A DNA stretch of 64,000 nt from Candidatus Peregrinibacteria bacterium GW2011_GWC2_39_14 (GTDB taxonomy: Bacteria; Patescibacteriota; Gracilibacteria; UBA1369; UBA12463). The translations under genes were made by a program, and so were the position numbers. Positions 6,102 through 60,423 of this stretch are shown here, piece after piece. The notes beneath the pieces were generated by a model. It was not told the DNA's origin and did not search any database. It saw nothing but the letters and a program-made list of their open reading frames with translations. How positions within the stretch are numbered: position 1 is the stretch's first letter; the number at the start of each line of letters is the position of its first letter. The DNA lies in the NCBI GenBank assembly GCA_000993595.1, contig LBWJ01000009.1, positions 5,935 through 69,934 of the forward strand, written 5' to 3'.

Positions 6102-6977
6102 TTATGAAGTGGTTGATTCCTTTTTTGACAGGAAATAGATGCCAAAAATAAGCAAAAACATGCCTCCCATTTGCATAATAGTCACTGATTCACCAAGAAA
6201 TATAAAGCCCAGAATTGCGACAAAAAATGGAGAAGTAAGCTCAAGACTAGTAACCTGAGCGGCCTTTAGTCTTTTCATGGCTTCATAAAAAAGCAATATT
6301 CCAATTCCAGCGATCACTCCGTTTAATATTTGATAAACATTGCTTACATAAAATGCGTTTGTATAAATTAAATAAGCAACAAGCATAACTGCGCCAATTC
6401 CAAATCTATAAAAAGTCGTAACTCCGGCATTGGTATTACTTAAATATTTTCTTGCAACCATTCCGGTCGTGGCCCATGCAATAGTTGCAATAAGCATAAA
6501 ATAATCCTCTTTTGTACCAATGCTAAAATTCCTCAAGCTATCCATGTCTTTTGCTACCACAAAAAATGCAGCTAAAAACATAAATGCGACTCCGATGTAA
6601 TCGTATTTTGTTATTTTATCGCTCTTTAAGAAAAAATATCCGATTAACAAAATGAATATTGGCTGGATGTGCCCTATCACGGAATAATTTACGACTGAAA
6701 TTTTACTTACTGAATAAAAATATATGAGATCGCCGATTATTGAGCCAAAAATCGCAAGATACATCATTGCGGAAAATTCCTTTTTTGTAACTTTAAAACT
6801 CGCCTTGTTCGTTATCAACGTGTAAATAAAGGCAATAATCACCATTGGAATCGCCCTTATTCCAAGTGTTTGTACGAATGTTGCATTTGAATATGACAAT
6901 TTAACAAGCACGGGATCAATCGCCCAAATGATGCTCGCGAGAAGAATTAAAATCACGCCAACGTGTTTCTTGTTCAT
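6102..6977 (-). CDS. EamA/DMT-family transporter
   Basis: 291 aa and about 10 predicted TM helices in two repeated halves, typical of the EamA family. Confidence 0.8.
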   Translation of the reverse strand: MNKKHVGVILILLASIIWAIDPVLVKLSYSNATFVQTLGIRAIPMVIIAFIYTLITNKASFKVTKKEFSAMMYLAIFGSIIGDLIYFYSVSKISVVNYSVIGHIQPIFILLIGYFFLKSDKITKYDYIGVAFMFLAAFFVVAKDMDSLRNFSIGTKEDYFMLIATIAWATTGMVARKYLSNTNAGVTTFYRFGIGAVMLVAYLIYTNAFYVSNVYQILNGVIAGIGILLFYEAMKRLKAAQVTSLELTSPFFVAILGFIFLGESVTIMQMGGMFLLIFGIYFLSKKESTTS

Positions 6978-7007
6978 GCGTGGATTATAACATGATAGAA
7001 TTGCGTT

Positions 7008-8021
7008 ATGAATTTTTGGGAAAAATTAGGAAAATCAGAGCGGCCGTTTTTTTGTTTGGCGCCAATGGAAGACGTGACCGACACGTGTTTTCGACAAATC
7101 GTTATGAAGGCGGGAAGGCCGGATGTGTTTTTTACTGAATTTATGAACATTGAAGCATTTGGAACAAAGGGTGAGGATAAAGTCATTCATCGGCTTAAAT
7201 ATGCGAAAAAAGAGCACCCGATTGTTGCACAAATTTGGGGAATGGACCTACGAAAATATATTCTTGGAATAAAAAAAATTAAAGAACTGGGATTTGATGG
7301 CGTTGATATCAATATGGCGTGTCCGGAAAAAAGAATTATTAAAAATGGCGCGTGCTCCGCGTTGATTAAAGACCCTGCGTTTGCAAAAGAAATTATTTTG
7401 ATTGCAAAAGAAGCCGCGGGAGACATGCCTGTTAGCGTCAAGACGCGTATTGGATTTAATAACATACAAACTGAGGAGTGGATTGGTTTTTTGCTTACTA
7501 TGGGCCTTGATGCGCTCACGATACACGGCAGAACGCGCAAAGAGATGTCTAAAGTTCCTGCGCACTGGGATGAAATTGGAAAGGCTGTGAAAATGAGAGA
7601 TGAAATGATGAAGGCGGGCGGAAAATTGGTAGGCAACAAGCCCGCGAAAAAAACTTTAATTATCGGGAATGGCGATATAAAAAACCGTGAACATGGAATC
7701 GAAATGGCAAAAAAATATGGCGTTGATGGGATTATGATTGGACGCGGAATTTTTCATAATTTGCTTGCGTTTAAAACTGGTGGCGCCGATGGTTCAAGTG
7801 CGGATTTCTCTGCCCTACCAATCAAAAAACGGCTTAAATATGCACTCGACCACTTGGAGCTTTTCGATAAAACTTGGGACGATTTCAAGAACTACGAAGA
7901 TATGAAAAAATTCTTAAAAATGTATATTATTGGGTTTGAAGGCGCAAATGATTTGAGAGTGAAATTGATGGGAACGAAGAAGAATGAGGAGGCACAAAAG
8001 ATACTTGAAGAATTAATATAA
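7008..8021 (+). CDS. dus: tRNA-dihydrouridine synthase
   Basis: 337 aa. Contains LAPMEDVTDTCFRQI, NMACPEKRIIKNGACSAL and TIHGRT, the Dus FMN/TIM-barrel motifs. Confidence 0.9.
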   Translation: MNFWEKLGKSERPFFCLAPMEDVTDTCFRQIVMKAGRPDVFFTEFMNIEAFGTKGEDKVIHRLKYAKKEHPIVAQIWGMDLRKYILGIKKIKELGFDGVDINMACPEKRIIKNGACSALIKDPAFAKEIILIAKEAAGDMPVSVKTRIGFNNIQTEEWIGFLLTMGLDALTIHGRTRKEMSKVPAHWDEIGKAVKMRDEMMKAGGKLVGNKPAKKTLIIGNGDIKNREHGIEMAKKYGVDGIMIGRGIFHNLLAFKTGGADGSSADFSALPIKKRLKYALDHLELFDKTWDDFKNYEDMKKFLKMYIIGFEGANDLRVKLMGTKKNEEAQKILEELI

Positions 8022-9413: not shown

Positions 9414-11126
9414 TTATGCGACTGCTGCCGATTCAAACGACTCTACCGCCTCTTGGTTTACAGTCGGACTATCCGCCACAATCGGCTCAACTACAACCGC
9501 CGCCTTGCTTTTTGCCGCCTTCTTTTTCCCTTCCGACATATTCTCGTTACGCATCATCCATAAGTCCAATAGCTCTTTATATGCTTCGATTTTTTCCGCA
9601 CTAAATCCAAGCTTATGCATAGCTTTTTTTATAAGTGGCCTAATTGTATCTTTCACAACCTGATCAACCCTTTGCTTATCGCATCCACATTCATACGCAA
9701 TATCGCTATTTGTTACATCTGCCCATGGCATATCATAAAGATCCAGCCTTCTTAAAAACATATACAGGTCTCTATCGTCCATATCTTCCCTGCTTAAATT
9801 TGATCTGTTCGTTGAGAACCTGTTTTTGATCATCCCCTTAACAATTCTAAGTACTTCCATAAAATTCTTGGATTCAAATCTAATCGCCACGTTCATTTCC
9901 GCCTCATTACAGCCAAGATCGCTCAACCCCTCTGATAGAATTATTCTTTCCAAGTCATGGTTTGCCGGGACATAATCGCCGCTCTCATCCTGAATCGTAT
10001 CGGATGTTGAAAATTCTCTTATATCATCGATACCTAATATCCTTTTTACGTCTTTAATGCTTCTGCCTGTCATTTCCATTATATCGCCTATTGATAGTGA
10101 CTTTCCTTCGGATTCCGCCTCTCTCATGGCTTTTTTTATACTGGCCAATAGCTCCATCTCCCAATATGGTATCCCAACCATGTGCCTGTCTCTTTCTAAA
10201 AATCTTCTTATGTAAGCCGTTATCCACCAATATGCGTATGTTGAAAATTCAGCCCTCCTCAGTTCTATTTTTTTGATCGTACGTTCTAAGCCTCTCAATC
10301 CTTCCTGAATAACGTCCCAAAATATAGCATCACCCTGACGAACTCTAAATTTATTTGCACACCAAACTACTAATCTAAAATTTCTTTTTATCAATTCATT
10401 AGTGGCTATTCTTGAGATTTCCGGGTCACTGCATTTAGCTCTAACCAGCATTCTACGCTGATCTCCACGCGATAAAGGCGAATATGCAAACAATTGATCA
10501 CCAAGGCTTACGAACGTTTTACCGTCATCTTTCAATTTAGCAACACATCCTTTCGCTTCTTCCAGCACTTCGTCCGCTGAACCTTCACCAATGCCCGCTT
10601 CCCCTTCTATATCATCGTCAATATCCCATCCATTAGCATCCACTTTTTCACATAATTTGAGCTTAGCTCGACTTTTATTTATAGCTTTTCTTTTAGTCAA
10701 CCTGTATTTGCCTTTACCGTCCGACTCCATTACTAAATCCAATTTATACAACTTGTGATGCGTAATTTTAACTAATCTTTCAAGCGCCTTCAGCAAAAAT
10801 TTTTCCATATACAATCCGTGAAAAATATAATTTACGTCCTCTAAATCAATCCATGTTTCAATTGGCGAATCAGAAAAACATCGATCTATTATTGCGTATG
10901 TCACGGTTTGTGTAGCTGTAATTTGCCTGCCCCAGCTCCTTATTTCTTCACTATTCTCAACGTCTTCCGGATTAATCAAACATGCGTGCCTCATGCAAAG
11001 TGCGATCTCTCCGTGCTTCATTCTTGTTAAAACTGTTAAATCGTGTCCATTTAAAGGCGCGGCTCTATGCACAGGATCAAATTCCTGCTCAACAAGGTCC
11101 TGCAATGCATCACGTAATGCTCTCAT
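9414..11126 (-). CDS. Divergent sigma-70-family RNA polymerase sigma factor
   Basis: 570 aa. LIKRNFRLVVWCANKF..DVIQEGLRGLERTIKKIELRRAEFSTYAYWWITAYIRRFL..VGIPYWE is colinear with RpoD regions 2.1-3.0. Region 3 and region 4.2-like segments (CDKQRVDQVVKDTIRPLIKK) follow. It has a 230-aa N-terminal extension. Confidence 0.75.
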   Translation of the reverse strand: MRALRDALQDLVEQEFDPVHRAAPLNGHDLTVLTRMKHGEIALCMRHACLINPEDVENSEEIRSWGRQITATQTVTYAIIDRCFSDSPIETWIDLEDVNYIFHGLYMEKFLLKALERLVKITHHKLYKLDLVMESDGKGKYRLTKRKAINKSRAKLKLCEKVDANGWDIDDDIEGEAGIGEGSADEVLEEAKGCVAKLKDDGKTFVSLGDQLFAYSPLSRGDQRRMLVRAKCSDPEISRIATNELIKRNFRLVVWCANKFRVRQGDAIFWDVIQEGLRGLERTIKKIELRRAEFSTYAYWWITAYIRRFLERDRHMVGIPYWEMELLASIKKAMREAESEGKSLSIGDIMEMTGRSIKDVKRILGIDDIREFSTSDTIQDESGDYVPANHDLERIILSEGLSDLGCNEAEMNVAIRFESKNFMEVLRIVKGMIKNRFSTNRSNLSREDMDDRDLYMFLRRLDLYDMPWADVTNSDIAYECGCDKQRVDQVVKDTIRPLIKKAMHKLGFSAEKIEAYKELLDLWMMRNENMSEGKKKAAKSKAAVVVEPIVADSPTVNQEAVESFESAAVA

Positions 11127-45529: not shown

Positions 45530-46459
45530 GTGCCGGTATACAAAAGAAGTATGAATCATCAAGCCATCCCCGTGCCTTCGCTGGAATTTCAGTTAACTGA
45601 TACGTGCCAGAATAACTGCGGATTCTGCGCGAATGGCGACAGTCCTTCAAAAAAACAATCACTCTCGCCGGAACTACTGCAAGAAACATTCCGCAGGATG
45701 CGTCCCGAATCTGTGATTTTTAGTGGCGGCGAGCCAACTATACGCATGGATTTGCTTGCTCCTTATATCCGTGCGGCACGTGCGGCCGAAGTAAAAACTG
45801 TAAAAATCAATACCAATCTGGAGCTGTTGGACCCGGAGCGACTCATGCAATTGGAAGATGCGGGACTCAATATTGTTCACTTCGCGCTCAATACTCTCGA
45901 GCCGGAGCAACATCGTAATTTACGCGGCAATCCGCACGCTGAAGTGACTCGTGTACTTGAAAATATTCATGTTATTTTGGAGCAAACGCGACTGAAATTA
46001 AAGCCCGAATTCGTATGCATGCACGAAACTGTAGAAAATTTTTGGGATGTATACGACTACCTTAATGATCTTCACGTAGCGCACCCCGGGCGTTTTGAAA
46101 CTATCGAATTACAACGTTTGATTCTTTTGGGCAGGGCATGCGATGCCTCAGCTCCGAAAACTTCAGAAATAGCTGAGATTATAAGCAGAAGAACTCTTGG
46201 AGCATTACAAGTTGATGCGCTTTGTTTTGGTCAAGAGGGAGCGCAGTTTGCGCCTTATGGCATACATGTGTTTCCGTGCTATAATCCCGCGAATTGCGGT
46301 TGCAGTCCCGTGCGAGTTGACGTGAATGGAGGTGTCTCCAAAACTAATTTTGCCGGCTTGCAGGCGGATTTCAATATAATGAATGTACCTGACGGCGGCA
46401 TAGAGAGATTATTGTCATCTCCATGCTCCGCTTCGCTTAAGGCGTGTGCAAAGGTATGA
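45530..46459 (+). CDS. Radical SAM protein
   Basis: 309 aa. CQNNCGFC is CX3CX2C and FSGGEPT is the SAM-binding glycine motif. The track start is GTG, and an in-frame ATG lies 21 nt downstream. Confidence 0.8.
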   Translation: MPVYKRSMNHQAIPVPSLEFQLTDTCQNNCGFCANGDSPSKKQSLSPELLQETFRRMRPESVIFSGGEPTIRMDLLAPYIRAARAAEVKTVKINTNLELLDPERLMQLEDAGLNIVHFALNTLEPEQHRNLRGNPHAEVTRVLENIHVILEQTRLKLKPEFVCMHETVENFWDVYDYLNDLHVAHPGRFETIELQRLILLGRACDASAPKTSEIAEIISRRTLGALQVDALCFGQEGAQFAPYGIHVFPCYNPANCGCSPVRVDVNGGVSKTNFAGLQADFNIMNVPDGGIERLLSSPCSASLKACAKV

Positions 46460-46485: not shown

Positions 46486-47364
46486 TTAAGCCACTTTTGA
46501 TATTTTCCATACACCTTTTTCTCTGAAAGCCGGAATGGTTTGACGATGAGCCGCGTTCAAAAGAGCGGAAAGGGATTTTTTAGTTGATTTTGCATAATCT
46601 GCAAGTTTGATAATTTCTTCGCCCTTCATATAAGTAATCCTTTTATGCATTGATTCCATTGCTGCCAAAGCTATTATTCGTTCCATGATTTTTGCGTCCT
46701 TTTTTTCATCATAAGCCCTGAAGGCTTTGTAATATTCCTGCTTTTCTTTATTACGAATAATGATTGGTGGCAAGCCTAAACTTTGAAACTGACAATTTAT
46801 CAAAACGCGTCCCATCCTACCATTGCCATCAATAAAAGGATGTGTATGTTCAAATTCCAAATGAAAACACGCAATTTTATCTAAATAATAAGTGTCATTA
46901 TCTGATAAATATTGAAGGATATTTGTTTCGACTAATCTTTCAATATGCTCAGGCGGAGGCGCAATGTAACTCCCAACGCGCACATATTCTCCGGATCGGC
47001 GGAACCTACCCGCTATATCATCATTGATATTGCTAATTAACATTCTATGAAGTAGCAGTATTGTTTCTTTATTAAGCGTGAATTCTCTGGATTTTCCCCT
47101 AATGTATTCCACTACCCTTGCGAGATTCTTGGCTTCAAATACTTCTCGAAGTGAAACGTTGCGAGAGATTTCCATTTCAAGCAGAATTTTTTCGGTTTCC
47201 TTGAGCGTTAGAGTAGAATTTTCGATTGCATTAGAGTTGTAGACACTTTCCGAAATCTCAGCCTCGTCAATCATTTGCAAAAGAGACTCTTTGCCTTGGC
47301 GCAAAGCCTCATAAGCTTCCCTTAAAGTTTTGATTCTATTACGGATAGTAATAATTGTTGTCAT
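46486..47364 (-). CDS. Fic-family protein with an N-terminal inhibitory SxxxEN motif
   Basis: 292 aa. The active site is HPFIDGNGRMGR. An upstream NSNAIENST matches the auto-inhibition motif (S/T)xxxE(G/N). Confidence 0.9.
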   Translation of the reverse strand: MTTIITIRNRIKTLREAYEALRQGKESLLQMIDEAEISESVYNSNAIENSTLTLKETEKILLEMEISRNVSLREVFEAKNLARVVEYIRGKSREFTLNKETILLLHRMLISNINDDIAGRFRRSGEYVRVGSYIAPPPEHIERLVETNILQYLSDNDTYYLDKIACFHLEFEHTHPFIDGNGRMGRVLINCQFQSLGLPPIIIRNKEKQEYYKAFRAYDEKKDAKIMERIIALAAMESMHKRITYMKGEEIIKLADYAKSTKKSLSALLNAAHRQTIPAFREKGVWKISKVA

Positions 47365-47380
47365 GCTTCCATTATATAGA

Positions 47381-47441
47381 ATTCACGGATCTTTGTCAAT
47401 ATCCCGTGAATTTGTATCGTTCCTGTGGATAATTCACGGAT
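47381..47441. promoter_or_regulatory. Three copies of a TTCACGG-core motif upstream of fic
   Basis: ATTCACGGAT (47381), its inverted partner ATCCCGTGAAT (47401) and AATTCACGGAT (47431), located 17-77 nt upstream of the fic start. Confidence 0.4.
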
Positions 47442-47668: not shown

Positions 47669-47743
47669 TGGAGCGGGTAGCGGGAATCGAACCCGCGTCT
47701 ACTCCTTGGAAGAGAGTCATAATAGCCATTATACTATACCCGC
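47669..47743 (-). tRNA. tRNA-Gly (anticodon UCC)
   Basis: Acceptor GCGGGTA/TACCCGC, anticodon arm ACTCT-CTTCCAA-GGAGT, T arm GCGGG-TTCGATT-CCCGC, encoded CCA. 75 nt. A stem (AGACCC/GGGTCT) follows downstream. Confidence 0.9.
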
Positions 47744-47800: not shown

Positions 47801-49903
47801 TCAATATCGTCTTGGCGCTTCTTGCCTGCTTGATTGCTTTCTTATAAACATTGGCGCGTTATCTTCAATCCAACCTCTGCCGAATGTTTTATCGAGATAA
47901 GATCTCTCTAGCCAGAAAACGCGATCGTGTTTTGCGAATTCAGCCCTGCATACTGGATTTCTTTCCATAACCCTGCGAAGATCACCCCAAACTCTGTTCC
48001 ATGAAATGCCTCCACTTATTTCATCTGCTTTTGCTCTAATTAATATTCCTTCCAATTCAGCTTTAGCTGCTGCGTCGAATAATGCATTTTCTGCCGGAGC
48101 CGCACCTTGTTGAAGTCCTCTATGTGCACCTTGCGTTGCCGTTCCACTTCTTGCTGCACCGCTTTCTTTTGCTCTCTTGGCGGCTATCGCCCCTTCTGAT
48201 AAACCTAATTTTTGTAATAATACGCCCACCTCTCCCTTTGAAGGCAAGCCCATTACGGCCTGATTTCGTAATGCACTTATTCTTGTTATAATCGCGACTC
48301 TTGCGGCCATCATTTCATCTCCTGTGAATGCCGCTCTTTGAGCTTCAGGCAAAGATTCGAAAGTCTTTATTGGGTTTTGAGATGCTTTTAATTGGCTCTC
48401 TAATGTCGCTGTTGGCGATGCTTCGTGAACTGCTGGTTTTGAAGCGGGGACTGGAGGCGCGACCGGAGCGTGTTGTTGATGTGCAGGAGCTTGCGGTGCT
48501 GGCGCTTTTTGCTGTGGTTTTGGAGCAGGAGTAGCGGCAGGTGCAGCTACTGCCTTTTTAGATATCGTTAATGCCGCAATCACATCCGGCAATCCTATGT
48601 CAGGTAAAATCGCATGGAATAAAGCATATGGTCGTGGGTCTTGTGCCGCATGCACGGCTTCTCCAACCAATGGTGCAAGATGTTTTTTTTGCACTCTTCC
48701 ACTTCTATATTCTATCAAAAGATGCAATGCCGCTCTTGCATCCGCTTCTATTCCAGGAAATGGTTTCGTTTCAAGACCTGCACTAAATTGCAAAGATAGA
48801 CTTGTCCCCGCTCTCAAATCTCCTGGCTCTAATGTTTGTACAAAAGTCACCAAGTTGCCGAATGTAATTTCTTTTGGGAATTCCGGTTTTTTCTCTGGTG
48901 CAGGAGCGGCGGCTTGCACAACCGCGACCTTTGGCGCTGGCGTTGGTACTGGCGCTGCTGTTTCTTGAACTGCTGCTGCGGCTTCTCGGGCGACTGCGGC
49001 TTGTAAACCTGACGGCGTTGGTGGAGTTGCCGAAGTTTTCGGCGCCGCGGACGGCACGCTTTTCAGCACTTGCTCCGGTACGGATACTCTCATTCCCAAT
49101 TCTTGTTGCGCATCTGCAATTGCAAGCCTTATAAGATCTGATAATCTAGGAAATACATTACATAAAATAGCGGCTGAAGATGTCTGTTCAAGGAGACGAA
49201 CTTGCTCTCCGATATAGCCCGTTATTGCTTCTGCGCTACTCCTCTCTTCAACAAGACGTTTAATGCTCATTGCCATCAAAACCACATCTGATTCATCTGT
49301 TGGTAAATTATTAAATCCTTCGTCTGCGGAAAGCATTTCAAAAAGTTCATTCAATCTTTCAACCGGCGTATCTTGCACTAAATGCAAGATGGAGTTTAAA
49401 GAAATCACGGCAGGTAAATTAATTTTCGGAAGAGTCGGTTGTACCGCGACTTGCGGTGCGGCTTCTAATGCGGCAATCGCTTTGCCGCCTGCTGCTGCTC
49501 GCCTGCCTTCCAACTCTACAACTATCGCCTCAACCTCAACAACATCGTCTGACATAGACGTTCCTCCGCCCATGTCAACTTCTTCAACGACTTCACCTCC
49601 AACAACGGGATTAACCTCAATAACAACTACGGCATCATCTTCTTTTTTCCTTCCTCTACCTCTTTTCTCTCTTGGTAGGACTGTCACACCTTTACCTCCA
49701 AGCATACCGGTCACTTTTCTTGCTCCTGCGGCTATTCTTTCTCCAATTGCCAATAACCCGCTTCCTTTGCTTGCAACTTCATCCGCGGCTTTACATGTTG
49801 GTGGCGGCAATGCTTCTTTTCTTGACAGTTTTGATGGCGCGCTTGGTCTCGGCATAACAGTTGTATGTTGCCCCTTAAAGCTTTCAGCACCTCCTTGACA
49901 CAT
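47801..49903 (-). CDS. Hypothetical 700-aa protein with an internal duplication and Ala/Pro-rich linkers
   Basis: Long ORF 29 nt downstream of the 1497-aa gene. No TM or signal peptide and no recognised catalytic motif. Confidence 0.7.
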   Translation of the reverse strand: MCQGGAESFKGQHTTVMPRPSAPSKLSRKEALPPPTCKAADEVASKGSGLLAIGERIAAGARKVTGMLGGKGVTVLPREKRGRGRKKEDDAVVVIEVNPVVGGEVVEEVDMGGGTSMSDDVVEVEAIVVELEGRRAAAGGKAIAALEAAPQVAVQPTLPKINLPAVISLNSILHLVQDTPVERLNELFEMLSADEGFNNLPTDESDVVLMAMSIKRLVEERSSAEAITGYIGEQVRLLEQTSSAAILCNVFPRLSDLIRLAIADAQQELGMRVSVPEQVLKSVPSAAPKTSATPPTPSGLQAAVAREAAAAVQETAAPVPTPAPKVAVVQAAAPAPEKKPEFPKEITFGNLVTFVQTLEPGDLRAGTSLSLQFSAGLETKPFPGIEADARAALHLLIEYRSGRVQKKHLAPLVGEAVHAAQDPRPYALFHAILPDIGLPDVIAALTISKKAVAAPAATPAPKPQQKAPAPQAPAHQQHAPVAPPVPASKPAVHEASPTATLESQLKASQNPIKTFESLPEAQRAAFTGDEMMAARVAIITRISALRNQAVMGLPSKGEVGVLLQKLGLSEGAIAAKRAKESGAARSGTATQGAHRGLQQGAAPAENALFDAAAKAELEGILIRAKADEISGGISWNRVWGDLRRVMERNPVCRAEFAKHDRVFWLERSYLDKTFGRGWIEDNAPMFIRKQSSRQEAPRRY

Positions 49904-49932
49904 AATTATTTGGTTAAGATATTATTATAGTA

Positions 49933-52900
49933 TTAAGCTTCCTTTGCTTGCAATGGATTTTGTTCATATTCTTCACCCGTCAACGTTTCTTGGATAACCG
50001 CCATTTTTTCCATTAAAGAATCCACTAAATCTCTGACCTCAAAAATGATACCTTTTTTGTCTTTCGGATTTTCTGCACATTTATACCATGCATCCGTACA
50101 TCTTTTAACGGTTTCATAATGATGTTTTCTTGATTCCTCTTTTTTCTTAGCTGACATTTTGCACCATTCGTCATCGTATTGTTTATTAATCCATTTATCC
50201 TCTAAAATATCTTTCATCTTATGCCTTTCAAGTAAATTTTCATATTCTGCAATATACCATTTTCCTATTTCTTCAAATGGCCCTCCAAATTGCGCATTTG
50301 ATAAAGCCGTACTTATAAATTGATAATATTTAATATCGCTCCAGGCTTTTCTTCCAAACATATCGGTTCTGCCTGAAAGATACCCCCAGCCTTTTCTTCT
50401 TCTCATATGAGGCAATATAATCAATTCTCCGCCGTCATCATAAGCCATTATTCTCTTGTCAGTTTCTTCATCATGACTTGTCTTAAAACTATCTAATGGA
50501 TATTCCATACCAACTTCTGTTGAAAGTAAAATGCTACTCCCAAGTATTGCCGCTGAATTATCATCAAGCTTACCCGGTATTGTGACCTGCAGTTCCGGCC
50601 GTCCTTTATCTAAAAGCCCTGTTTCTTCCAAACAAGCTAGAATTATAATCATTTCTTCCTGCGTCATAACCGGAGGAATTATGAATGAATTTGTTGCAGC
50701 TTCCAACTTAAAGGCTGAACTTGTTAATCTCAATAGTCTAAATAAACGATCATACTCTTTTGAATTAATTCCGTGCAAAAGATGGACCTTGCCTCCCACC
50801 GGCAAAACCCCTTTATATTCCGACCTTTTCGCTTCGATTGCGCGCTTTAATTCAATAACCTGTCCTCCAAATTGTCTGCCAACCTGCTTGGCCGCAAATG
50901 CCATTGCATCATGCACGCTCCTAATGGTGTCTCCAATCATTGCCCCGAGTTCGATGTCGCCACCTGCTGGCAATGCCGGCGTTTCATCAATCCTATCATT
51001 GACGTATGCCAAAACTCTATCACGCCCCGCTCCTTTTCCACCTTCTCTTTCCATGAAGTCTACAACCCTTGCAATACCAAAAAACGTCAATACGCTCTTT
51101 AATGCTTTACGTGCATTTTCTTGCTCAATGTTTTCTCTGACTTCGGCCTTTTTACCACAATATCTCTCAACTATATCGTCTATTTCTTTGAATGCATTAA
51201 ATTTTATCAAAATATCGAACTTCGATTTTAGCGTTTTCTGACGCACAAACCTCTCTACGTTAAAGTATTTTACGTTTATAGCTTTTAATGTCTCATTCGC
51301 TTTTACAATTGTTTCCGCCGCGTATTCGCTTATATTTCCGTCATTATCTATTATTGTTTCGAAATCTATATCGTTAGCCGCATATATAAGTTGTCTCATT
51401 CCAACCACCATTTTATAAAAACTTTCCAACATGGCAATTCTATCTTTTGATGTTTTCGCAGATCTCATCTCTTCTTTAACCGCTTCCGCATCAATAAGCC
51501 CATCTTCGATACCCTCTTTTAAAGCTTCTGTAAAATTTTCCCATTCATCTTCATCGCTTCGCGGTAATTTATATGGATTTAGCATGACATCTTTATCTGC
51601 AGTATACTGATCTTCGCCTTCCTGATCCGGCGTATTTAATGCTTCGGAAACCAATCCTTCCATGATTTCTCGATAATTAAAAATGTCTCCTAAATTCATT
51701 ACTTCAATCAAGCTTTTATAATGAACGATAGCCTGCATTGCTCCCGCGATATTGTCCCATCTGAAGTTTAAAGTACCTGAAAAAGCATCTAACAACTCTC
51801 GATGATATTGCTCACTAAGATGATACAATGTCGCTTTAACCCATCCTTGATCCCTAAAATCTGCGCAATGCTCTCCTTCACCTTCCGCTTCAATCCGCTC
51901 ATTTGACTCCATGTGGTCGATCTCCCATTTATTCAATCTCTCATAAATAAAATCCCATTCGCTCTGCTTTACTCCAGCTTGATTAAAGCCGATATTATCG
52001 CCGACTGCATGCTCAATTAGTTTCTCCATCTGTTCATCTGTGACAGCTCCTCTGTTATAAAAATCGATTAATATTCTTACGGCGCAAAGCCTAACGGTCC
52101 TTACCGAAGCTTCATCGCGCGGTCCTCTACCATCTCTTTCGAACATCCTCCTGTTCACGCTTTCCACGGATTCCGGTATTTCTTTTATTGTTTTTATAAG
52201 TTTTAAAAAGTTTTTCGGCGGATTAAATGGGTCTCTCATTGCATTTGCAAACATGGCAAAATACAATCTTAGAACATCTTCATCTACTGAACCTGTTTCT
52301 TCTTTGCAACGATCATATAAATTCATTGCGTTTGAAACTATATTCGCTCTTGCTGGTTTGCTCACCTCCATTCCGCCTTCTCTATGATATGGCAGTGCCG
52401 CGATTGCCGCTGATGCGTTGTGTGGCAACATATGGCTTGCCGCAAGGTTATCTTGATCAAAATCCAATGCCATTCCAAGACGCTCCGCCTCCGGCATCGC
52501 ATTAAATTGTCTCCAAATGCCTCTAAGCAATTTTGCGTCCAAAACCTGTAAATCGAGTTTTCTTTCACGCATCTTATCTCTACTACCATCCAAAGTCGCT
52601 TTGAAAAAATCCAATCCCGGAAATGGCACCGTAACTTCATCACCTTCCATCTTGCAAGTTATTTCACTTCGAGGTTCATTTTTATCAACATGCTCAAGAA
52701 ATTGTTTTATAAAAACTTCCTGCTCTGATGCGTTCAATTTTCCAAGACCCAAAATCATTATGTCTATAATTCTGATTGCTCTTGGCATATTGCCTATTCC
52801 ATATCTGCTAGCTATAAAACACGTTATTTCTATTGTGCGCTTTTTTGGCATAAATTTTTCCAAACCACATCCCCCCTGAAAATATGCTTTGCAACCATAT

Positions 52901-54426
52901 TCAAAATCATACCCTGCATATTTGCTGAATTCTTCAACCGCCTGAATATCATCTTCGCCCATTGCCGCTCTATATTTCCCTTGATGTTCACTTTTTGCCT
53001 TTGCGTAAACCGCAAATGGATTAAAGTTTTTAACAAAATACCACGGCCTTTTATTTTGACCCCAGATGTTATCAACAATCGCGACAACCACTTCCAAAGC
53101 CTGAAACCTGTTGTTTCTTTTTCTCATAACAAATTCAAACATTTCAACTGCTCTGTTTATATCAAGACCGTTTGAAATCCAAAAATCTATTCTTGCATGC
53201 ATTTTTCTTGCAGCATTACTTAAAACAAGTCCTTGCGATGCCGAATCTTTAAGCTTCATGAAAAAATATGTCATGTCCGGATGATGACCAAAGCCCGCGC
53301 TTTCCATGGCATCCAAAATCTTTTGCCTATTGCCATCTATCTTGAATTTTCTCGGCCTTTTTAGGTCTTTTGGAATCGTATCAAACATTTGTTGCGCAAC
53401 CGTTTTAAACGGATGCTCTGTAAAATGCAAAGGCATATCTCCTGATTCAAAAAGATCACTATCGCCGTTTTCCACATACGAAAAAGCTAATTTTGATCTC
53501 AAGAATGCCCAATCAAAAGGCGTGTCGCCTTTTTTCCCAAGACGTGGATACATGGTGTCTGGATAAAATTCATACTGTAAATTGTTTGCCGCCCACATGC
53601 TTTCAGCTTTTTCATCAAATTGTGCCAAAAAACACCTCACGTACTTTTCGTCCTCACTCATTTTTCGATGTCCTTTTTGCGTGAGCCGTATTGAAATCTC
53701 GTCATCATCAATCTCCACGTTACCAGGCTCTTCAATGCGATTATCTTTTAATGCCGGCTTGCCAAGCATGCGCAAGTGGTCTCTCAAGTAACTCGTCTTC
53801 CACACACGATCAAAACCGGACGCACCCTCGCCCGTTAAATACACCGGACATGACATGCCTCGTACGTTCGTAAGATGGTTACCCATTTCATAAATCGTGT
53901 CAAAATAAACCGGCTTTTTATTTCTTCTTTTCTTGCCATCATCATCATCATCGTCGTCTTCATCAACATAATCATCTCTCCTCACAAGCCGACGCTTGCA
54001 TGGTTTAAATTTTTCACTATAAAAATATGCAGTTGGTCCACGATGTCTTTCTTCATCTCTCCTTTCAAAAAAATCCGGCAACTCTCTCCAGACTTTTTTA
54101 TCTTCCTTTTCTCTTCTTTTTTGACCTTGTTTGTATTCTCTCGTTCTTTCCCTTGCATCTCGTTTTCTTTCTCTTTCTCTTTCTTTCATCCATTCTCTTT
54201 GCCTTCTCCTTTTTTCAAGCTCCTTCTTTCTTCTCTCCGCATTTATAGCCCGAATACACTGCTTTTGCTTTAACTCAATATCGTCACCTAATAAAACCGA
54301 TGCGCGTATTGCAGCCAAGTCTCGCTGCAAATCATATAGATCTGCTCCAATAACGGGCTGTTCGCCGTCAAAATCAACTTCCGGAAAATCCATTTCATCG
54401 TCAAACCTGCCTTCAAAATCCTCCAT
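49933..54426 (-). CDS. Hypothetical giant protein (1497 aa)
   Basis: Uninterrupted 4.5-kb ORF. An N-terminal hyper-charged K/R/E block is followed by a poly-Asp run. No recognised domain. Confidence 0.75.
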   Translation of the reverse strand: MEDFEGRFDDEMDFPEVDFDGEQPVIGADLYDLQRDLAAIRASVLLGDDIELKQKQCIRAINAERRKKELEKRRRQREWMKERERERKRDARERTREYKQGQKRREKEDKKVWRELPDFFERRDEERHRGPTAYFYSEKFKPCKRRLVRRDDYVDEDDDDDDDGKKRRNKKPVYFDTIYEMGNHLTNVRGMSCPVYLTGEGASGFDRVWKTSYLRDHLRMLGKPALKDNRIEEPGNVEIDDDEISIRLTQKGHRKMSEDEKYVRCFLAQFDEKAESMWAANNLQYEFYPDTMYPRLGKKGDTPFDWAFLRSKLAFSYVENGDSDLFESGDMPLHFTEHPFKTVAQQMFDTIPKDLKRPRKFKIDGNRQKILDAMESAGFGHHPDMTYFFMKLKDSASQGLVLSNAARKMHARIDFWISNGLDINRAVEMFEFVMRKRNNRFQALEVVVAIVDNIWGQNKRPWYFVKNFNPFAVYAKAKSEHQGKYRAAMGEDDIQAVEEFSKYAGYDFEYGCKAYFQGGCGLEKFMPKKRTIEITCFIASRYGIGNMPRAIRIIDIMILGLGKLNASEQEVFIKQFLEHVDKNEPRSEITCKMEGDEVTVPFPGLDFFKATLDGSRDKMRERKLDLQVLDAKLLRGIWRQFNAMPEAERLGMALDFDQDNLAASHMLPHNASAAIAALPYHREGGMEVSKPARANIVSNAMNLYDRCKEETGSVDEDVLRLYFAMFANAMRDPFNPPKNFLKLIKTIKEIPESVESVNRRMFERDGRGPRDEASVRTVRLCAVRILIDFYNRGAVTDEQMEKLIEHAVGDNIGFNQAGVKQSEWDFIYERLNKWEIDHMESNERIEAEGEGEHCADFRDQGWVKATLYHLSEQYHRELLDAFSGTLNFRWDNIAGAMQAIVHYKSLIEVMNLGDIFNYREIMEGLVSEALNTPDQEGEDQYTADKDVMLNPYKLPRSDEDEWENFTEALKEGIEDGLIDAEAVKEEMRSAKTSKDRIAMLESFYKMVVGMRQLIYAANDIDFETIIDNDGNISEYAAETIVKANETLKAINVKYFNVERFVRQKTLKSKFDILIKFNAFKEIDDIVERYCGKKAEVRENIEQENARKALKSVLTFFGIARVVDFMEREGGKGAGRDRVLAYVNDRIDETPALPAGGDIELGAMIGDTIRSVHDAMAFAAKQVGRQFGGQVIELKRAIEAKRSEYKGVLPVGGKVHLLHGINSKEYDRLFRLLRLTSSAFKLEAATNSFIIPPVMTQEEMIIILACLEETGLLDKGRPELQVTIPGKLDDNSAAILGSSILLSTEVGMEYPLDSFKTSHDEETDKRIMAYDDGGELIILPHMRRRKGWGYLSGRTDMFGRKAWSDIKYYQFISTALSNAQFGGPFEEIGKWYIAEYENLLERHKMKDILEDKWINKQYDDEWCKMSAKKKEESRKHHYETVKRCTDAWYKCAENPKDKKGIIFEVRDLVDSLMEKMAVIQETLTGEEYEQNPLQAKEA

Positions 54427-54511
54427 TTCTTGTTTGGATTAAGAATGGAGGGAAATTTTACCACTTTAAGGTGGAATGTCAAGGTGAATGAGCGTCCAAT
54501 AAAATCGGTCG

Positions 54512-54892
54512 CTATGCTACTCTTCTTGGCTCTGCCGCAGAAGATCTAACGGCTACACTTGGCGCTTGTCTTGTTCCATGCGAGGATCCTCTTGCAGGAC
54601 TTGAAGGTGCTACTGGAGCTGCCAGAGCTGCTGGAGTTGTTGCGGATGCTGGCCTTGAAGCCGGGATTGCATTAAGAGCCCCCAACGTTTGTCTTCTCGC
54701 TGAAAGTCTGGCTAAAAATAAACCACTATTACCTCCTAATTGCGTCTTCCATTCCGCTACTGCCAATTCACTCAAACGGCCTAAATCTTCCAATCCAACG
54801 GTGCTTAATTTAGCATCAATAGCGACCGGATCTCCTCCTTTCACGGTTTCTCTTAATTCTTTACGTCCTCTTTGATCTAATGATAATCCCAT
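54512..54892 (-). CDS. Hypothetical 126-aa protein with an Ala/Pro/Ser-rich tail
   Basis: First ORF of the minus-strand operon, starting about 35 nt downstream of the candidate divergent promoter. Confidence 0.55.
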   Translation of the reverse strand: MGLSLDQRGRKELRETVKGGDPVAIDAKLSTVGLEDLGRLSELAVAEWKTQLGGNSGLFLARLSARRQTLGALNAIPASRPASATTPAALAAPVAPSSPARGSSHGTRQAPSVAVRSSAAEPRRVA

Positions 54893-54924
54893 ATTTTTGT
54901 GGTTAGATTGTATTTTCTACCCAA

Positions 54925-54961
54925 AGCTTATCTTGACATATTTGCACTGTCAAGTTAAACT
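54925..54961. promoter_or_regulatory. Palindromic face-to-face divergent promoter candidate
   Basis: CTTGACA, 9 nt, TGTCAAG. The plus strand reads TTGACA-17 nt-TAAACT and the minus strand reads TTGACA-17 nt-TAAGCT. Confidence 0.45.
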
Positions 54962-54979
54962 CACACCCTTACAATTGAC

Positions 54980-57859
54980 ATGGACAAAAAATTATTACCA
55001 TTACAGCTAGTCGAACGATTTGATCATTGCAAAATGTGGCCGATGGTTCCTGTAACAACGCCTGAAAAAGCACCAACTCTGGACGAGCGAGCGGAAATAG
55101 ATGAATATATAAAACTTGGTAAAGTTGTAATTAAGGAAATTTTGGGCGATGTCGACACTTCACATACACACATTGGTGGTGCAACTCGCGACTATTATTG
55201 CTGTGAAGAAGGGCATGAAGAATATAGACTTTTGATGACTTTGTTAAAAGGAGCAAAAAGCGTTGAACAAGTTCAGGACTTGGTTGCGGGTTATATTTTT
55301 CAAACGATTAACGAATTACGTGATGCCCGTTATATTCCGGATCCCGACTACCCACTAAAACGTAAGCCTATTTATGGAGAAGTGAGAGATGTGATGATCG
55401 GCAGATTGCCTCAACAAGGCACACCATATAATTTTAAAAGAATAATCCCACATTCAGAGTTAAGAAATGAATTTGAACATCAAGAAAGATACAGACTGCA
55501 TTACCATCAAAAACATATCGGAGCAACAACCGGGCATTATTTTAGAATGCCACGAAGCGCAAGCTATTTGATGGAATTTATGCCAACGCTTCAACAATCA
55601 AGACGATATGCATTTGAACCAAACCATGATTGCTTACATACTCTTCTTGCTGATTCACATCATGTTTTTCCTAAGCATTTTCCGGTGGGGCGATATTGGG
55701 CCAAACGTGAAACGCCAAAGAACAAACGTATGACTCCTTCAAAATTAACCAGATTTTTTACTTTACCGGGTTTAAATGATTACCTTGAAGCTGATGGAAA
55801 AATGCCCGATGAATCAATCGCATCGAATTTAACAATTATAGCTGAATATATTTGCGAAAATAGAGGTGCTATTTATAAAAATGATATTAAACCTGAAGAC
55901 ATTGATAAGTGGATGAAAAATAAATTTAAAAAATATCATCCGGATTTAGGCGTTGCCACATATGTTTGGGCAAGATTACTTGGAACCGAATTCGAAGATA
56001 CTTCTCTTTGGATCGAACAATACATCCTTGATCTTATTGAAAAGGAAAACCCGTGGGTCTTTGAAGCCGCAGGCCATGAAACGAGAAAAGATTATAACTA
56101 TCCCAAGTCTCTTTTAATTTTATACGCAAAGGCTTTGGCTGTAACCGATATCGGAATTCCGGACAAAGATAAATTACAAGAATTATTACTTTTAATTCCA
56201 GCCCAAGAATTACTCGAAGCTGCAATGGGTAGCAAAAATTATAAAAGTTGTGGATCCCTTGTTCTTCTTTACTCATATGCTTGTGATAGGTCCAGATATA
56301 TTCCTACACCTGATAAATATAATGATGAACGATGTGAAAATGATTTTTATGGATATTGCTTGGATTTATTTCAAGAGTCTTTCGAACCTTCACATGAATG
56401 GACGCATATTGAAGGATTTGAATTACTTGATCCAATGGCAATTGACGGATACACAAATTCGCGTGGCTGGACCGCTTTGCAAGAAAGAATGAAAGCGGCT
56501 GAAGAAAAAATGAGAACTATGGCACCAAGTGAATTAATGGCATTTAAAATAGCTGTAGTAGATAAATTACCAGAACCTTATGCTGAAAAAGCTTTATATT
56601 TAATTACCGACATTGCAAAAAAATACACTGTTTCAGTTAGCTTCCAGAGTCATGATACAGATGCCATCGCAAATATGGCGTCTAATGGATACGACGGAGA
56701 ACGGCCTGAACTAATTCTTCCCGGCGGAATTTCCTTAGATGAATTGGCCGGAACCGGATATTCGAAAGCACGATTCACGGAAATTGCAGAACTCGCAATA
56801 TTGGAAAGACATCTTCGAGGACAAGTGCGAGGAGACGATGCGCTTATTAAACATCTTATGGCTCATCGCTCTACAATGATGCCCGGCGAGCTTATTGCGC
56901 CAATTCCGGGTTCACCAAATCTGGAAATAATTAAAATATATGGAGATTCTCCGGATTTATTATCTCTTTTAACTATCGCTACATTGCTCGTTTACGTTGG
57001 ATATGATTATGACCAAATTATGAAAGAGATTGAGATGCTACAAGGTGAGCTTATTGATCCAATGCAATCTCGAAATCTCACCGCTACGGTTGGAGCGGAA
57101 CTTGAAATAGTTGGCGCAACTCCGGAAGGACAAATTGTCAACCCTGATCGCTTTGGCCTTCTCACAAATGTAGTTGCAATGGGTAATGATAAGCCCGTAA
57201 ATGAATTAAAAACTCCGCCAACAATGAGTGCGTTTATGCAAAAATATCTTTTTAACCTTATTACCGATGAAAGATTCCAATTTATTTATGCGAAAATGCT
57301 TTGGGACGTTTCGGCGCGAAAAGACAGATCTCCAACCGCTGTGCACGTAAGCGTTGCAATGCCAAAAGACATTCCTTTTTCAGCAGATCTTGTTAGAAAA
57401 TATATGGCTCCGATACACGAGATGCAATGGATCGCCAGTGAAATGAGAGCTCAAGTTCCTCGCGCCAGCAGTGCGGGCTATGTTAAAGACTGGAGGAGCA
57501 TGGCTCTTCTGGACACAGTGGGCGATAAACATCCGTCTATGCAGGTTGAAGACAAAAGCCTATCTCTTGATCCTCGTGGCGATTATGGGAAACAAATAGA
57601 GATGATTCAATTACTATCTTCTGCCGCTGTCCAATACATGAGAGAAAAAGGAGGCTTGCCAATGGATCCGAGCGGTAGAATTATGGCACAAATTTATGTT
57701 GATTTTGTTCGTGAGTCTAAATTGATTTTAGGTATGCCTTTAAATGAAATGTCGCAAGTTGTTGCAAGCGCTTTAATGGAAAAATACGCAGATACTGTAA
57801 AGTCCGAATTAAATCGACCAAGCATGGTAAAAAAGAGTGGAATTGTTTGGGTTGAGTAA
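54980..57859 (+). CDS. Hypothetical 959-aa protein; the C-terminal region has a glutamine-synthetase-like amidoligase motif order (tentative)
   Basis: Long ORF divergent from the giant-protein operon. GAELEI .. NELKTPP .. AVHVSV .. QVEDKSLSLD occur in the order expected for the COOH-NH2 ligase fold. Confidence 0.7.
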   Translation: MDKKLLPLQLVERFDHCKMWPMVPVTTPEKAPTLDERAEIDEYIKLGKVVIKEILGDVDTSHTHIGGATRDYYCCEEGHEEYRLLMTLLKGAKSVEQVQDLVAGYIFQTINELRDARYIPDPDYPLKRKPIYGEVRDVMIGRLPQQGTPYNFKRIIPHSELRNEFEHQERYRLHYHQKHIGATTGHYFRMPRSASYLMEFMPTLQQSRRYAFEPNHDCLHTLLADSHHVFPKHFPVGRYWAKRETPKNKRMTPSKLTRFFTLPGLNDYLEADGKMPDESIASNLTIIAEYICENRGAIYKNDIKPEDIDKWMKNKFKKYHPDLGVATYVWARLLGTEFEDTSLWIEQYILDLIEKENPWVFEAAGHETRKDYNYPKSLLILYAKALAVTDIGIPDKDKLQELLLLIPAQELLEAAMGSKNYKSCGSLVLLYSYACDRSRYIPTPDKYNDERCENDFYGYCLDLFQESFEPSHEWTHIEGFELLDPMAIDGYTNSRGWTALQERMKAAEEKMRTMAPSELMAFKIAVVDKLPEPYAEKALYLITDIAKKYTVSVSFQSHDTDAIANMASNGYDGERPELILPGGISLDELAGTGYSKARFTEIAELAILERHLRGQVRGDDALIKHLMAHRSTMMPGELIAPIPGSPNLEIIKIYGDSPDLLSLLTIATLLVYVGYDYDQIMKEIEMLQGELIDPMQSRNLTATVGAELEIVGATPEGQIVNPDRFGLLTNVVAMGNDKPVNELKTPPTMSAFMQKYLFNLITDERFQFIYAKMLWDVSARKDRSPTAVHVSVAMPKDIPFSADLVRKYMAPIHEMQWIASEMRAQVPRASSAGYVKDWRSMALLDTVGDKHPSMQVEDKSLSLDPRGDYGKQIEMIQLLSSAAVQYMREKGGLPMDPSGRIMAQIYVDFVRESKLILGMPLNEMSQVVASALMEKYADTVKSELNRPSMVKKSGIVWVE

Positions 57860-57888
57860 ATGGGACGAAGATAACAATGCCAGCAACC

Positions 57889-59307: not shown

Positions 59308-59449
59308 TTGTTTTTGTTTAATTTATATCATTATATCATGGAAATCGAGATTTAGCAAATGGGGACGTTTCCTTAGTTTGGCTTTTACATGTGGAACGGG
59401 GACAGAGGTGATAACATTGACTTTGTGGTAAAAGTATACTACAATTGTA

Positions 59450-60010
59450 GTGATAAATAACTACATAATTATGCTCCCTAAATCAAAACTCACTCAAAGC
59501 CTATTTACGTACTTTTTTTTAAATCCTGAAAAAGAGCTTTATCTGAGAGAATTGGCCAGAACACTCTCTTGCGATGCCGCAAATCTGGATAAAACCCTTA
59601 AAAAACTTGAAAAAGAAGGTTTATTTAAAAGCGAATTTCACGGAAAACAAAAATATTATTTTTTGAATACATCCTTCCCTCTTTATGATGAGTATAAAAA
59701 AATCATTGAAAAGTCATTTGGAGTTCAGAAATTTTTTAGAAATATTTTAGAAGGATTTAATGATATTAGTGTAATCTATATCTACGGATCTTATGCGAAA
59801 AATGAAATGTCTGCAAATAGCGATATAGATGTGCTCGTTATAGGCAGGCCTGATGTGTTAAAGCTTTCTCGTGAAGTATCGGAATTTGAAAATTTGTTTA
59901 ATAGAGAACTAAATTACACGATTATTGATGAGAGTGAATTGGCAAAAAAAAGACAGAACGATCCATTTTTAAAAAATATATTTAAAGGCAAAATTATAAA
60001 AATTACATGA
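59450..60010 (+). CDS. wHTH plus minimal nucleotidyltransferase (MNT) protein
   Basis: 186 aa. The NTase motif is YIYGSYAKNEMSANSDIDVLVIG. The likely start is the internal MLPKSK at about 59471. Confidence 0.8.
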   Translation: MINNYIIMLPKSKLTQSLFTYFFLNPEKELYLRELARTLSCDAANLDKTLKKLEKEGLFKSEFHGKQKYYFLNTSFPLYDEYKKIIEKSFGVQKFFRNILEGFNDISVIYIYGSYAKNEMSANSDIDVLVIGRPDVLKLSREVSEFENLFNRELNYTIIDESELAKKRQNDPFLKNIFKGKIIKIT

Positions 60011-60423
60011 AATTTGAAGAGAAGCATTTTAAAAGATTTGATTTCACAAACAAAGAAATTCGATTGTTTCTTGAAAACAGCAGGCGCGATTTGGACATAG
60101 CAAAAAATAATAAAACGCCTGAAGTTATTTTTAGATTCGGGTATGATTCAATCCTGAAATCCTGCATAGCTTTAATTGCTTTCTGTGGATTTAAAGCCAA
60201 AAGCGTACCTGGTCACCATATCATTATAATCAGCAAAGCTTCTGAAATTTTAAATCATGAATATGCGGAAATTTTTTATTTTTGCAATAATATAAGAAGA
60301 AAAAGAAATTTTGATTTGTATGCCGGTGGATCATTTTTTTCTGTACAAGAAGCCAAAAATTTGATAGAAATATCTGAGAAAATTTATACTATTGTAAAAA
60401 ATTATGTTCAAAAGGGGCGATAA
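60007..60423 (+). CDS. HEPN domain protein (partner of the MNT)
   Basis: 138 aa. 4-nt overlap with the MNT gene. Helical, with NNIRRKRNFDLY typical of the HEPN Rx..Y/H region. Confidence 0.65.
   Translation: MKFEEKHFKRFDFTNKEIRLFLENSRRDLDIAKNNKTPEVIFRFGYDSILKSCIALIAFCGFKAKSVPGHHIIIISKASEILNHEYAEIFYFCNNIRRKRNFDLYAGGSFFSVQEAKNLIEISEKIYTIVKNYVQKGR

Follow-up and report, generated by a model that had tools for sequence, protein, structure and literature searches.

What is encoded by a run of four consecutive open reading frames (ORFs) whose products match no known family is the question raised by a 10-kb locus of Candidatus Peregrinibacteria bacterium GW2011_GWC2_39_14. The locus lies in a stretch of 64,000 nucleotides (GenBank assembly GCA_000993595.1, contig LBWJ01000009.1, forward-strand positions 5,935 to 69,934), referred to here as the window. 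An earlier reading of the letters and translated ORFs, here called the sequence-only reading, took the four genes for a single undescribed system of giant, domain-less proteins. Our analysis shows that the locus is made up of two conserved modules of two genes each, independent of one another and typical of the branch that Peregrinibacteria, Peribacteria and Gracilibacteria form within the Candidate Phyla Radiation (CPR). [quoted passage not shown] The four ORFs, whose positions and lengths had been given correctly, span 10,059 nt or 15.7% of the window (about 16% had been claimed), and the gaps of 85 nt and 29 nt between the minus-strand genes are as first reported. The genes, taken from the ORF list, and the modules that they form are as follows.

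47801-49903, minus strand: module A partner, 700 aa
49933-54426, minus strand: module A giant, 1497 aa
54512-54892, minus strand: module B partner, 126 aa
54980-57859, plus strand: module B giant, 959 aa
47801-54426, minus strand: module A, the 1497-aa and 700-aa genes
54512-57859, divergent: module B, the 126-aa and 959-aa genes

The independence of the two pairs is clearest in a close relative, locus L023, whose β-CASP RNase and TrmA-like methyltransferase are 97% and 88% identical in amino-acid sequence to those of the window. The order there is β-CASP gene, 116 nt, a 1565-aa giant and its partner, and the 126-aa and 959-aa genes are missing. Module A thus occurs without module B, and the two pairs are therefore independent. 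In the same comparison the giant (49% identical) and partner (50%) have diverged much faster than the β-CASP protein. A more distant arrangement, in L018 and L020, runs from a 1511-aa giant (31% identical) through a 71-aa ORF and a 708-aa partner to tRNA-Gly(UCC), Fic and Gmad2 (91%). At seventeen loci with homologues of the 959-aa protein, the 1497-aa family is not represented within 10 kb, and the link between the two pairs is kept in none of about 40 related loci. Of the four-gene synteny that the sequence-only reading proposed to look for in related genomes, the part within each pair (700/1497 and 126/959) is thus kept and the part between the pairs is not, which contradicts the view of the four genes as one system. 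The segment by which L023 differs is:

about 54491-57888, no strand: module B cassette, missing from L023 (blastn and blastp of L023 against the window)

A phage or mobile origin of these genes was considered and rejected: no relatives of either giant family were found on viral contigs, no terminal repeats flank the 126/959 cassette, and the G+C content at third codon positions (GC3) is host-like. Downstream of the L023 β-CASP gene, a 53-nt segment (6155-6207) is 83% identical to a segment that lies upstream of the β-CASP gene in the window (59357-59409). This segment seems to flank the L023 gene on both sides, and is possibly a recombination scar at the site that the 126/959 cassette occupies in the window. 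All seven contigs with the 1511-aa relative (L018, L019, L020) stop about 150-280 nt upstream of its start, and the end of the L018 contig (1-177) holds a fragment of a helix-turn-helix, transposase-like ORF (MDMPYTTNPNIPRLRLQAAKLVLEKGWSTRQVARYTGF...). The assembly breaks are probably due to a repeated insertion sequence element there, and a 959/126 pair could lie beyond them.

Since all four genes have homologues and a GC3 in the host range (0.25-0.34, compared with 0.32-0.43 in neighbouring host genes), we regard them as real. The 700-aa and 126-aa genes owe their higher G+C to an Ala/Pro/Gly-rich composition and not to foreign origin. An exhaustive HMMER scan with residues 241-1440 of the 1497-aa protein recovered 274 proteins at E ≤ 1e-3, of which 65 reach E ≤ 1e-30. 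These relatives are 23-40% identical to it, form at least 274 clusters at 50% identity and occur in Peregrinibacteria, Peribacteria and Gracilibacteria, the named members being from Peregrinibacteria and Peribacteraceae; one that is full-length, P0015 (KKQ67551.1), belongs to a Candidatus Peregrinibacteria metagenome-assembled genome (MAG). A word-indexed search with the same protein had returned the query alone, a false negative by the evidence of the HMMER scan, and an indexed search alone is an unsafe basis for calling ORFans among fast-evolving CPR proteins. The 959-aa protein has ten homologues at 29-56% identity, and eight further loci of its family lie in Peregrinibacteria, Peribacteria and Gracilibacteria MAGs. 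The genes that flank the family are housekeeping genes, different in each lineage.

None of the four proteins matched PHROGs, the PADLOC models of anti-phage defence, NCBIfam or Pfam at E ≤ 1, searches of PDB sequences returned no relative, and the database names are all 'hypothetical protein'. As large uncharacterised proteins with conserved gene linkage, outside every curated family, they were well described by the sequence-only reading. It was also right that they have no transmembrane helix and no signal peptide: the maximum Kyte-Doolittle value of any 19-mer is at most 1.62, and no N-terminus is hydrophobic or signal-like.

Several database members of the 1497-aa family (P0109, P0077, P0124, P0133, P0144 and P0148) carry Trp where the family keeps Gly (IWWKIHF, WRTDILGR). 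To judge by these substitutions, they look like genes of Gracilibacteria or Absconditabacteria using code 25 (UGA = Gly) that were translated with UGA as Trp. The loci that we fetched were all translated with code 11, under which the longest ORFs are intact. A 1713-aa domain-less neighbour in L007 was tried as a further relative of the 1497-aa protein and ruled out as unrelated.

The description of the giants as domain-less holds for sequence profiles and fails for structure, since both show a recognisable fold in AlphaFold2 (AF2) models searched with Foldseek. The model of the 959-aa protein, made with the family alignment, has a predicted local distance difference test score (pLDDT) of 81.6 and a predicted template-modelling score (pTM) of 0.81; residues 1-692 are helical and residues 700-950 are α/β. 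For residues 1170-1497 of the 1497-aa protein, modelled with 30 homologues, the scores are 86.3 and 0.88, and the order of strands and helices is the same in the two C-terminal domains.

50140-50871, minus strand: predicted GS-fold amidoligase-like domain of the 1497-aa protein (residues 1186-1429), with a non-canonical site (AF2 and Foldseek)
57077-57829, plus strand: carboxylate-amine-ligase-like domain of the 959-aa protein (residues 700-950; AF2, Foldseek and invariant columns)

Searched against PDB, the 959-aa model found E. coli γ-glutamylcysteine synthetase (GCS) GshA, 1va6/1v4g, first (probability 0.87, E = 0.065, template-modelling score (TM-score) about 0.2) and Dop lower down, the other matches being helical solenoids such as exportins and HEAT proteins. 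The C-terminal domain of the 1497-aa protein has YbdK (1tt4/1r8g), many glutamine synthetases, GmaS and Dop at the head of its PDB matches, with E-values from 2e-3 upwards and probabilities of at most 0.85, and in BFVD its first matches were phage 'Amidoligase' proteins (probability 0.91). The models thus suggest the GS-fold class, and no particular family, for both domains; the core of that fold is a saddle-shaped sheet in which some six strands are flanked by helices.

The residues conserved in the two domains tell them apart. The carboxylate-amine ligase superfamily has been defined strand by strand (Iyer et al., 2008, PMC2588565): strand 1 has GhExE/Ex[EH], strands 2 and 3 bear acidic residues, strand 4 has [HD]x[NH], strand 5 an Arg and strand 6 Ex[RK]x2D. 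In the 959-aa family, strand 1 (703-711) reads G705-A-E707-L-E709, with G705, E707 and E709 invariant in 11 sequences. Strand 2 (740-744) bears the invariant pair N741-E742, and D737 is invariant too. The conserved H789 lies on strand 4 (786-795), as HxN in 8 of 10 members and as HxS in the window copy and P0003. A basic residue, K in the window copy, precedes W838 on a strand at 834-836, and E857-x-[RK]859 (K859 in the window copy) lies on a strand at 850-858, followed by an acidic residue at +7 where the superfamily has one at +5. In hhalign these motifs come into register with those of YbdK (GIELE, LELAT, QHVHV, VEVR) and GshA (GLERE, GVHYNFSLP), at scores that are not significant.

The 1497-type domain keeps a different set, in which K1213, H1215, E1258, Q1280, T1322, R1353, D1355, W1412 and H1436 are near-invariant. 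G-G-K1213-x-H1215 stands on strand 1, acidic residues are missing from strand 2 (SLLLPP), E1278-x-Q1280 and a conserved Arg in RIMAYD follow, and the last strand reads x-G-R1353-T-D1355 with the Glu-equivalent position variable. Because the acidic ligands are replaced by equally conserved K-x-H, E-x-Q and R-x-D, we consider the site remodelled. The domain (residues 1186-1429, approximately) is found in proteins of 240-1974 aa.

What links the module A giant to its partner is a rule about the start of the downstream gene. In 18 of 23 genes with the 1497-type C-terminal domain, the next gene on the same strand begins M-C-x-x-H, and one more has a variant start (MVCGGH); the family consensus is M-C-[EDNQ]-x-H-R-H-[ILV]-G. 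These MC-partners follow C-domain proteins of 590-1974 aa, mostly at a distance of 5-70 nt, and are 55-708 aa long, usually Pro/Ala-rich and unalignable beyond the motif. Both Cys and both His codons are used in it, which indicates that selection acts on the peptide, and among 545 background genes nearly all MCx(1-3)H starts belong to MC-partners. No such partner follows the C-domain gene of L035, the tandem two of L038 or the second one of L021. The 700-aa partner of the window is 24% Pro plus Ala, with helical segments split by Pro/Ala linkers, and shares 60% identity with the 708-aa protein of L018, 61% with P0014 and 50% with its L023 counterpart. Its own motif is located as follows.

49865-49903, minus strand: N-terminal 'MC' motif of the 700-aa partner, MCQGGAESFKGQH (downstream-gene comparison)

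C-domain genes are often paired. L044 (1954-9518) holds two tandem pairs of giant and MC-partner, L038 (5397-11957) two back-to-back C-domain genes with no partner, and L021 (10001-18915) a convergent pair of C-domain genes encoding 1347 and 1171/1228 aa. In L018 two consecutive ORFs, at 4883-5098 (71 aa, MCREHTAIA) and 5126-7252 (708 aa, MCNSHRGLG), both have MC starts, and the N-terminal handle seems, by its sequence, to have been duplicated there. No Shine-Dalgarno-like sequence precedes the start of the MC-partner in the window (49904-49932) or in L018, L023, L025-L027, L032, L033 and L037; in those loci a TTAA[CT] recurs about 10-16 nt upstream of the start, with an AT-rich spacer, and could be a translation-coupling signal or a mere effect of composition.

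In module B the pairing is divergent. A small ORF of 118-225 aa lies directly upstream of the 959-aa homologue in 11 of 11 loci with enough upstream sequence, and the 126-aa type of protein has a helical N-terminal domain of about 70 aa and a Pro/Ala/Ser-rich tail. Between the two genes stands a palindrome:

54925-54961, both strands: crossed bidirectional promoter/operator CTTGACA-N9-TGTCAAG, arms 54925-54938 and 54948-54961 (sequence and alignment)

The core TTGACA-N9/10-TGTCAA is exact in 12 of 13 distinct loci, at a chance of about 1e-4 per locus, and is invariant across five loci whose proteins are only about 30% identical. In the alignment each TTGACA is followed 17-18 nt later on its own strand by TAnnnT, so that the promoters cross and share about 37 bp. 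Such nearly complete overlap would admit one RNA polymerase at a time and tie the expression of the two genes together. The 1497-aa gene has a promoter of its own in the 85-nt gap:

54447-54490, minus strand: promoter of the 1497-aa gene, TTGACA, 16 nt, TG-TAAAAT, hexamers at 54482-54455 (consensus match)

It matches 11 of 12 consensus positions and has an extended -10, and the L023 giant gene is preceded by a sequence 84% identical to this block, despite the different flanking gene. Since this promoter is separate and conserved, the 126-aa gene need not share an operon with the 1497-aa gene. The co-regulation of the 959-aa gene with the minus-strand operon, which had been read from the palindrome, is thus not borne out, as the palindrome couples the 959-aa gene only to the 126-aa gene.

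Taken together, these data are best explained by two modules in which ligase-like giants act with linked disordered partners, and we put the probability of this explanation as a whole at a little over one half (about 0.55). In each module a large, cytoplasmic giant whose long N-terminal part is helical carries a probable GS-fold domain at its C-terminus and has a largely disordered Pro/Ala-rich protein as its neighbour. In module B the C-terminal domain of the 959-aa protein, as modelled, keeps the catalytic signature of the superfamily, and we infer an active amidoligase, dependent on ATP and Mg, as its most likely role; the solenoid would probably provide a substrate-binding platform, and the small co-transcribed partner would most likely be a substrate, tag or regulator. 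In module A the remodelled pocket could belong to a non-canonical enzyme or to a peptide-binding pseudo-ligase, into which the N-terminal M-C-x-x-H-R peptide of the partner may dock. Removal of the Met would expose a Cys, with a free amine and a thiol, beside a His, and this peptide might then undergo modification or be held in place, a shared metal site being one way in which such tethering could come about. A ligase reading has precedents in GS-fold enzymes that act on the α-amine of cysteine (GCS) or on a disordered protein (PafA/Pup). A bolder form of it, which we think unlikely, is a CPR-restricted ligation or tagging pathway in which the GS-fold domain recognises the exposed N-terminal Cys of the disordered partner and, through the α-amine, joins the partner to a carboxylate or attaches something to it, the 1497-type forming a third, non-metal GS branch. 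If true, this would be an ATP-driven, tRNA-independent analogue of pupylation or N-terminal arginylation.

Several results weigh against the proposal of two ligase-like modules. The Foldseek E-values are only 1e-3 to 7e-2 and the TM-scores 0.2-0.33 (0.25-0.33 for the 1497-aa C-terminal domain), and no sequence or profile method gave a significant match of either giant to any known family. Thus 11 members of the 959-aa family had no match to GCS2, Glu_cys_ligase, Gln-synt_C, Amidoligase_2 or Pup_ligase in Pfam at E ≤ 10, Pfam searches with these 11 and with 37 members of the 1497-aa family gave scattered noise only, PDB searches with the family profiles of both giants gave nothing meaningful, and hhalign of the 959-aa C-terminal domain with YbdK and GshA gave a non-significant probability of 1-2%. 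Aligned to each other by hhalign, the two C-terminal domains reach a probability of 3.9% (P = 0.011) over 189 co-linear columns. Paralogy of the two giants was considered, and as BLASTP, a search of the 959-aa family with the 1497-aa C-domain hidden Markov model (HMM) and hhalign were all non-significant we make no claim of it. The 1497-type domain lacks, on strands 1, 2 and 6, the acidic metal ligands that define active members, and the 959-aa copy of the window itself departs from the signature at the HxS, the K for R and the displaced acidic residue described above. The partners add to these difficulties: in the window's own MC-partner the motif is degenerate, with MC retained and the His displaced to position 13, and the small partners of module B agree in no terminal residue at which a ligation could be placed.

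It is conceivable, then, that the fold match is coincidental or vestigial and that the giants are non-enzymatic scaffolds of episymbionts (cytoskeletal, envelope-associated or for host contact) with the partners as structural co-components. Such a role, which we consider rather unlikely, would suit the low TM-scores and the failure of profile searches, a 1497-type domain devoid of metal ligands, and the fact that most of each giant is a helical solenoid like those of exportins and HEAT proteins; giant proteins of related CPR bacteria have been assigned roles in host attachment (PMC8080830), and the rapid divergence of giant and partner (49-50%, compared with 97% for the β-CASP RNase) would also fit. 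Three independent Foldseek searches converge on one superfamily, however, and the invariant GhExE, NE, H and Ex[RK] on the predicted strands of the 959-aa protein are hard to explain without catalysis or ligand binding. The giants of Vampirococcus, moreover, were inferred to be membrane proteins, whereas there is no signal peptide or transmembrane segment here.

The rapid divergence could also point to conflict, with the giants as effectors or toxins that act on some target of a host or competitor cell by means of their conserved amidoligase-like domain, and the downstream protein as an antidote or chaperone that plugs the site with its MC peptide. Tight pairing with short gaps and the tandem duplications in L044 and L038 do resemble toxin-immunity loci, module B is present or absent between close relatives, and Fic and MNT/HEPN-type genes lie nearby. 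Against this, no secretion or trafficking domain and no PADLOC or toxin-family match was found, the C-terminal domain is the most conserved part of the protein and not polymorphic, partners of up to 700 aa that are mostly disordered are unlike compact immunity proteins, and the families are missing from viral contigs and flanked by housekeeping genes; an effector role is in our view distinctly unlikely. Least probable of all, and very improbable given the comparative data, is that the four genes form one co-regulated undescribed system. Their adjacency in the window speaks for it, and a shared fold class and disordered partners would make cross-talk conceivable, but linkage from pair to pair was seen in none of the roughly 40 loci, the promoters are separate, and the N-terminal regions of the two giants are unrelated.

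Two further features of the 1497-aa protein lie outside the ligase-like domain.

53902-54426, minus strand: charged region (residues 1-175) with acidic head, E/R/K block and poly-Asp run (charge profile)
51019-53691, minus strand: conserved N-module (residues 246-1136), with no recognisable domain (family HMM alignment)

The charge profile shows the acidic head (net -13 over residues 1-50), the hyper-charged E/R/K block (64-111) and the run that follows it (DEDDDDDDD, 155-163), all as first described. Their likeness to eukaryotic chromatin-binding segments or nuclear localisation signals, on which the sequence-only reading remarked, is unsupported; the block is variable and lineage-specific and precedes the conserved modules. 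In the 1497-aa protein the charged region lies outside both of these modules and is probably disordered or a single charged helix; the L023 and L018 giants have a comparable region that aligns poorly with it. The N-module is common only to the 1300-1700-aa members of the family, and hhalign finds no relationship between it and the N-terminal part of the 959-aa protein (probability 0.1%).

The flanking genes of the window encode Gmad2/Germane, radical SAM, Fic, a β-CASP RNase, a nucleotidyltransferase/HEPN-like pair and a TrmA-like methyltransferase; Gmad2 shares 91% identity with its counterpart in a Candidatus Peregrinibacteria MAG, which marks the genome as one of the Peregrinibacteria type. 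The tRNA gene that had been noted at the end of module A is present:

47669-47743, minus strand: tRNA-Gly(UCC), flanking module A (ARAGORN and Rfam)

It follows the homologue of the 700-aa partner in L009 and L018 too. Its position next to module A is conserved synteny only, and we claim no functional part for it; tRNA was the only structured RNA found in the Rfam scan. The Fic gene (46486-47364) has just upstream of it a perfect 12/12 sigma-70 consensus (TTGACA, 17 nt, TATAAT) at 47371-47399 on the minus strand, and Fic adjoins tRNA-Gly in L018 also, although identity between the two Fic proteins is only 29%. Between Fic and Gmad2 of L018, not many genes away from the giant, lies a canonical GCS2 (PF04107) carboxylate-amine ligase gene (9658-11070, minus strand), whose place is occupied in the window by the radical SAM gene (45530-46459). 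At 59450-60423 on the plus strand, between the TrmA-like and β-CASP genes, a nucleotidyltransferase (Polbeta/NTP_transf_2, 186 aa) and a 138-aa ORF overlap by 4 nt in an MNT/HEPN-type-like arrangement; this pair is missing from L023 and is the second difference in gene content there.

Much of bacterial diversity belongs to the CPR, and the large proteins of these bacteria are for the most part functional dark matter. For two such families the present analysis yields a concrete hypothesis, a GS-fold amidoligase-like domain with a linked disordered partner, and names candidate residues: E707, E709, H789 and E857 in the 959-aa protein, K1213, H1215, Q1280, R1353 and D1355 in the 1497-aa protein, and C2 and H5 of the partner. 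If the MC peptide is a handle for ligation or docking, bacteria would have a new way to modify or tether proteins, and the GS fold would gain a branch without metal-binding glutamates. Our literature searches found no description of either family. The fold itself is of a known kind; what appear to be new are the architecture, the partner rule with its MC motif and the non-canonical set of residues.

How far these modules resemble known systems can be judged case by case. Polymorphic toxin-immunity systems are a poor match: the giants have no signal or trafficking domain, their C-terminal domain is the most conserved part, and the downstream proteins, of 55-708 aa, are mostly low-complexity. 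The phage and integrative and conjugative element (ICE) Amidoligase family (Amidoligase_2, PF12224) is represented among the top BFVD matches of the 1497-aa C-terminal domain. These amidoligases were reportedly treated by Iyer et al. 2009 (Mol Biosyst 5:1636) and are said to be compact GS-fold domains predicted to modify peptides or proteins. None of the 48 members that we scanned matched PF12224, neither family is found on viral contigs, and the giant N-terminal extension and the residue set of the 1497-type are different. M. tuberculosis Rv2566, a large protein with a C-terminal carboxylate-amine ligase domain (PMC2588565), is built in a similar way, its GS-fold ligase domain coming after a large N-terminal region. 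Proteins of that type have a transglutaminase-like domain and no small partner ORF, whereas the N-terminal regions of the present giants, which are helical, contain no recognisable domain and the partner is conserved.

In the Pup-PafA/Dop system a GS-fold ligase is encoded beside a small intrinsically disordered protein on which it acts (PMC2588565). The marks of that system are a protein of 50-90 aa ending in G[EQ], a ligase of the PafA family and neighbouring proteasome genes. The likeness lies in a ligase-fold gene beside a gene for a disordered protein, and Dop is among the Foldseek matches of both C-terminal domains. The giants do not belong to the PafA family, Pup_ligase was not matched in Pfam, no proteasome or Mpa genes were found in any context examined, and the phylum is different; moreover the C-termini of the partners are unconserved and have no G[EQ], the conserved element of module A being N-terminal (MCxxHR). 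The best structural matches of both domains are GCS2/YbdK (PF04107; 1r8g, 1tt4) and GshA (1va6, 1v4g), with which the 959-aa family shares, in register, GhExE, an acidic residue on strand 2, HxN and Ex[RK]. These enzymes join a carboxylate to the α-amine of cysteine, a suggestive reaction in view of the Cys near the start of the module A partner. The giants differ from them in having no significant profile or sequence similarity, and in a shorter domain (about 250 aa) that is fused to a helical region of 700-1200 aa. The 1497-type has in addition exchanged the metal ligands for KxH, ExQ and RxD, and beside the giant the gene for a disordered partner is conserved.

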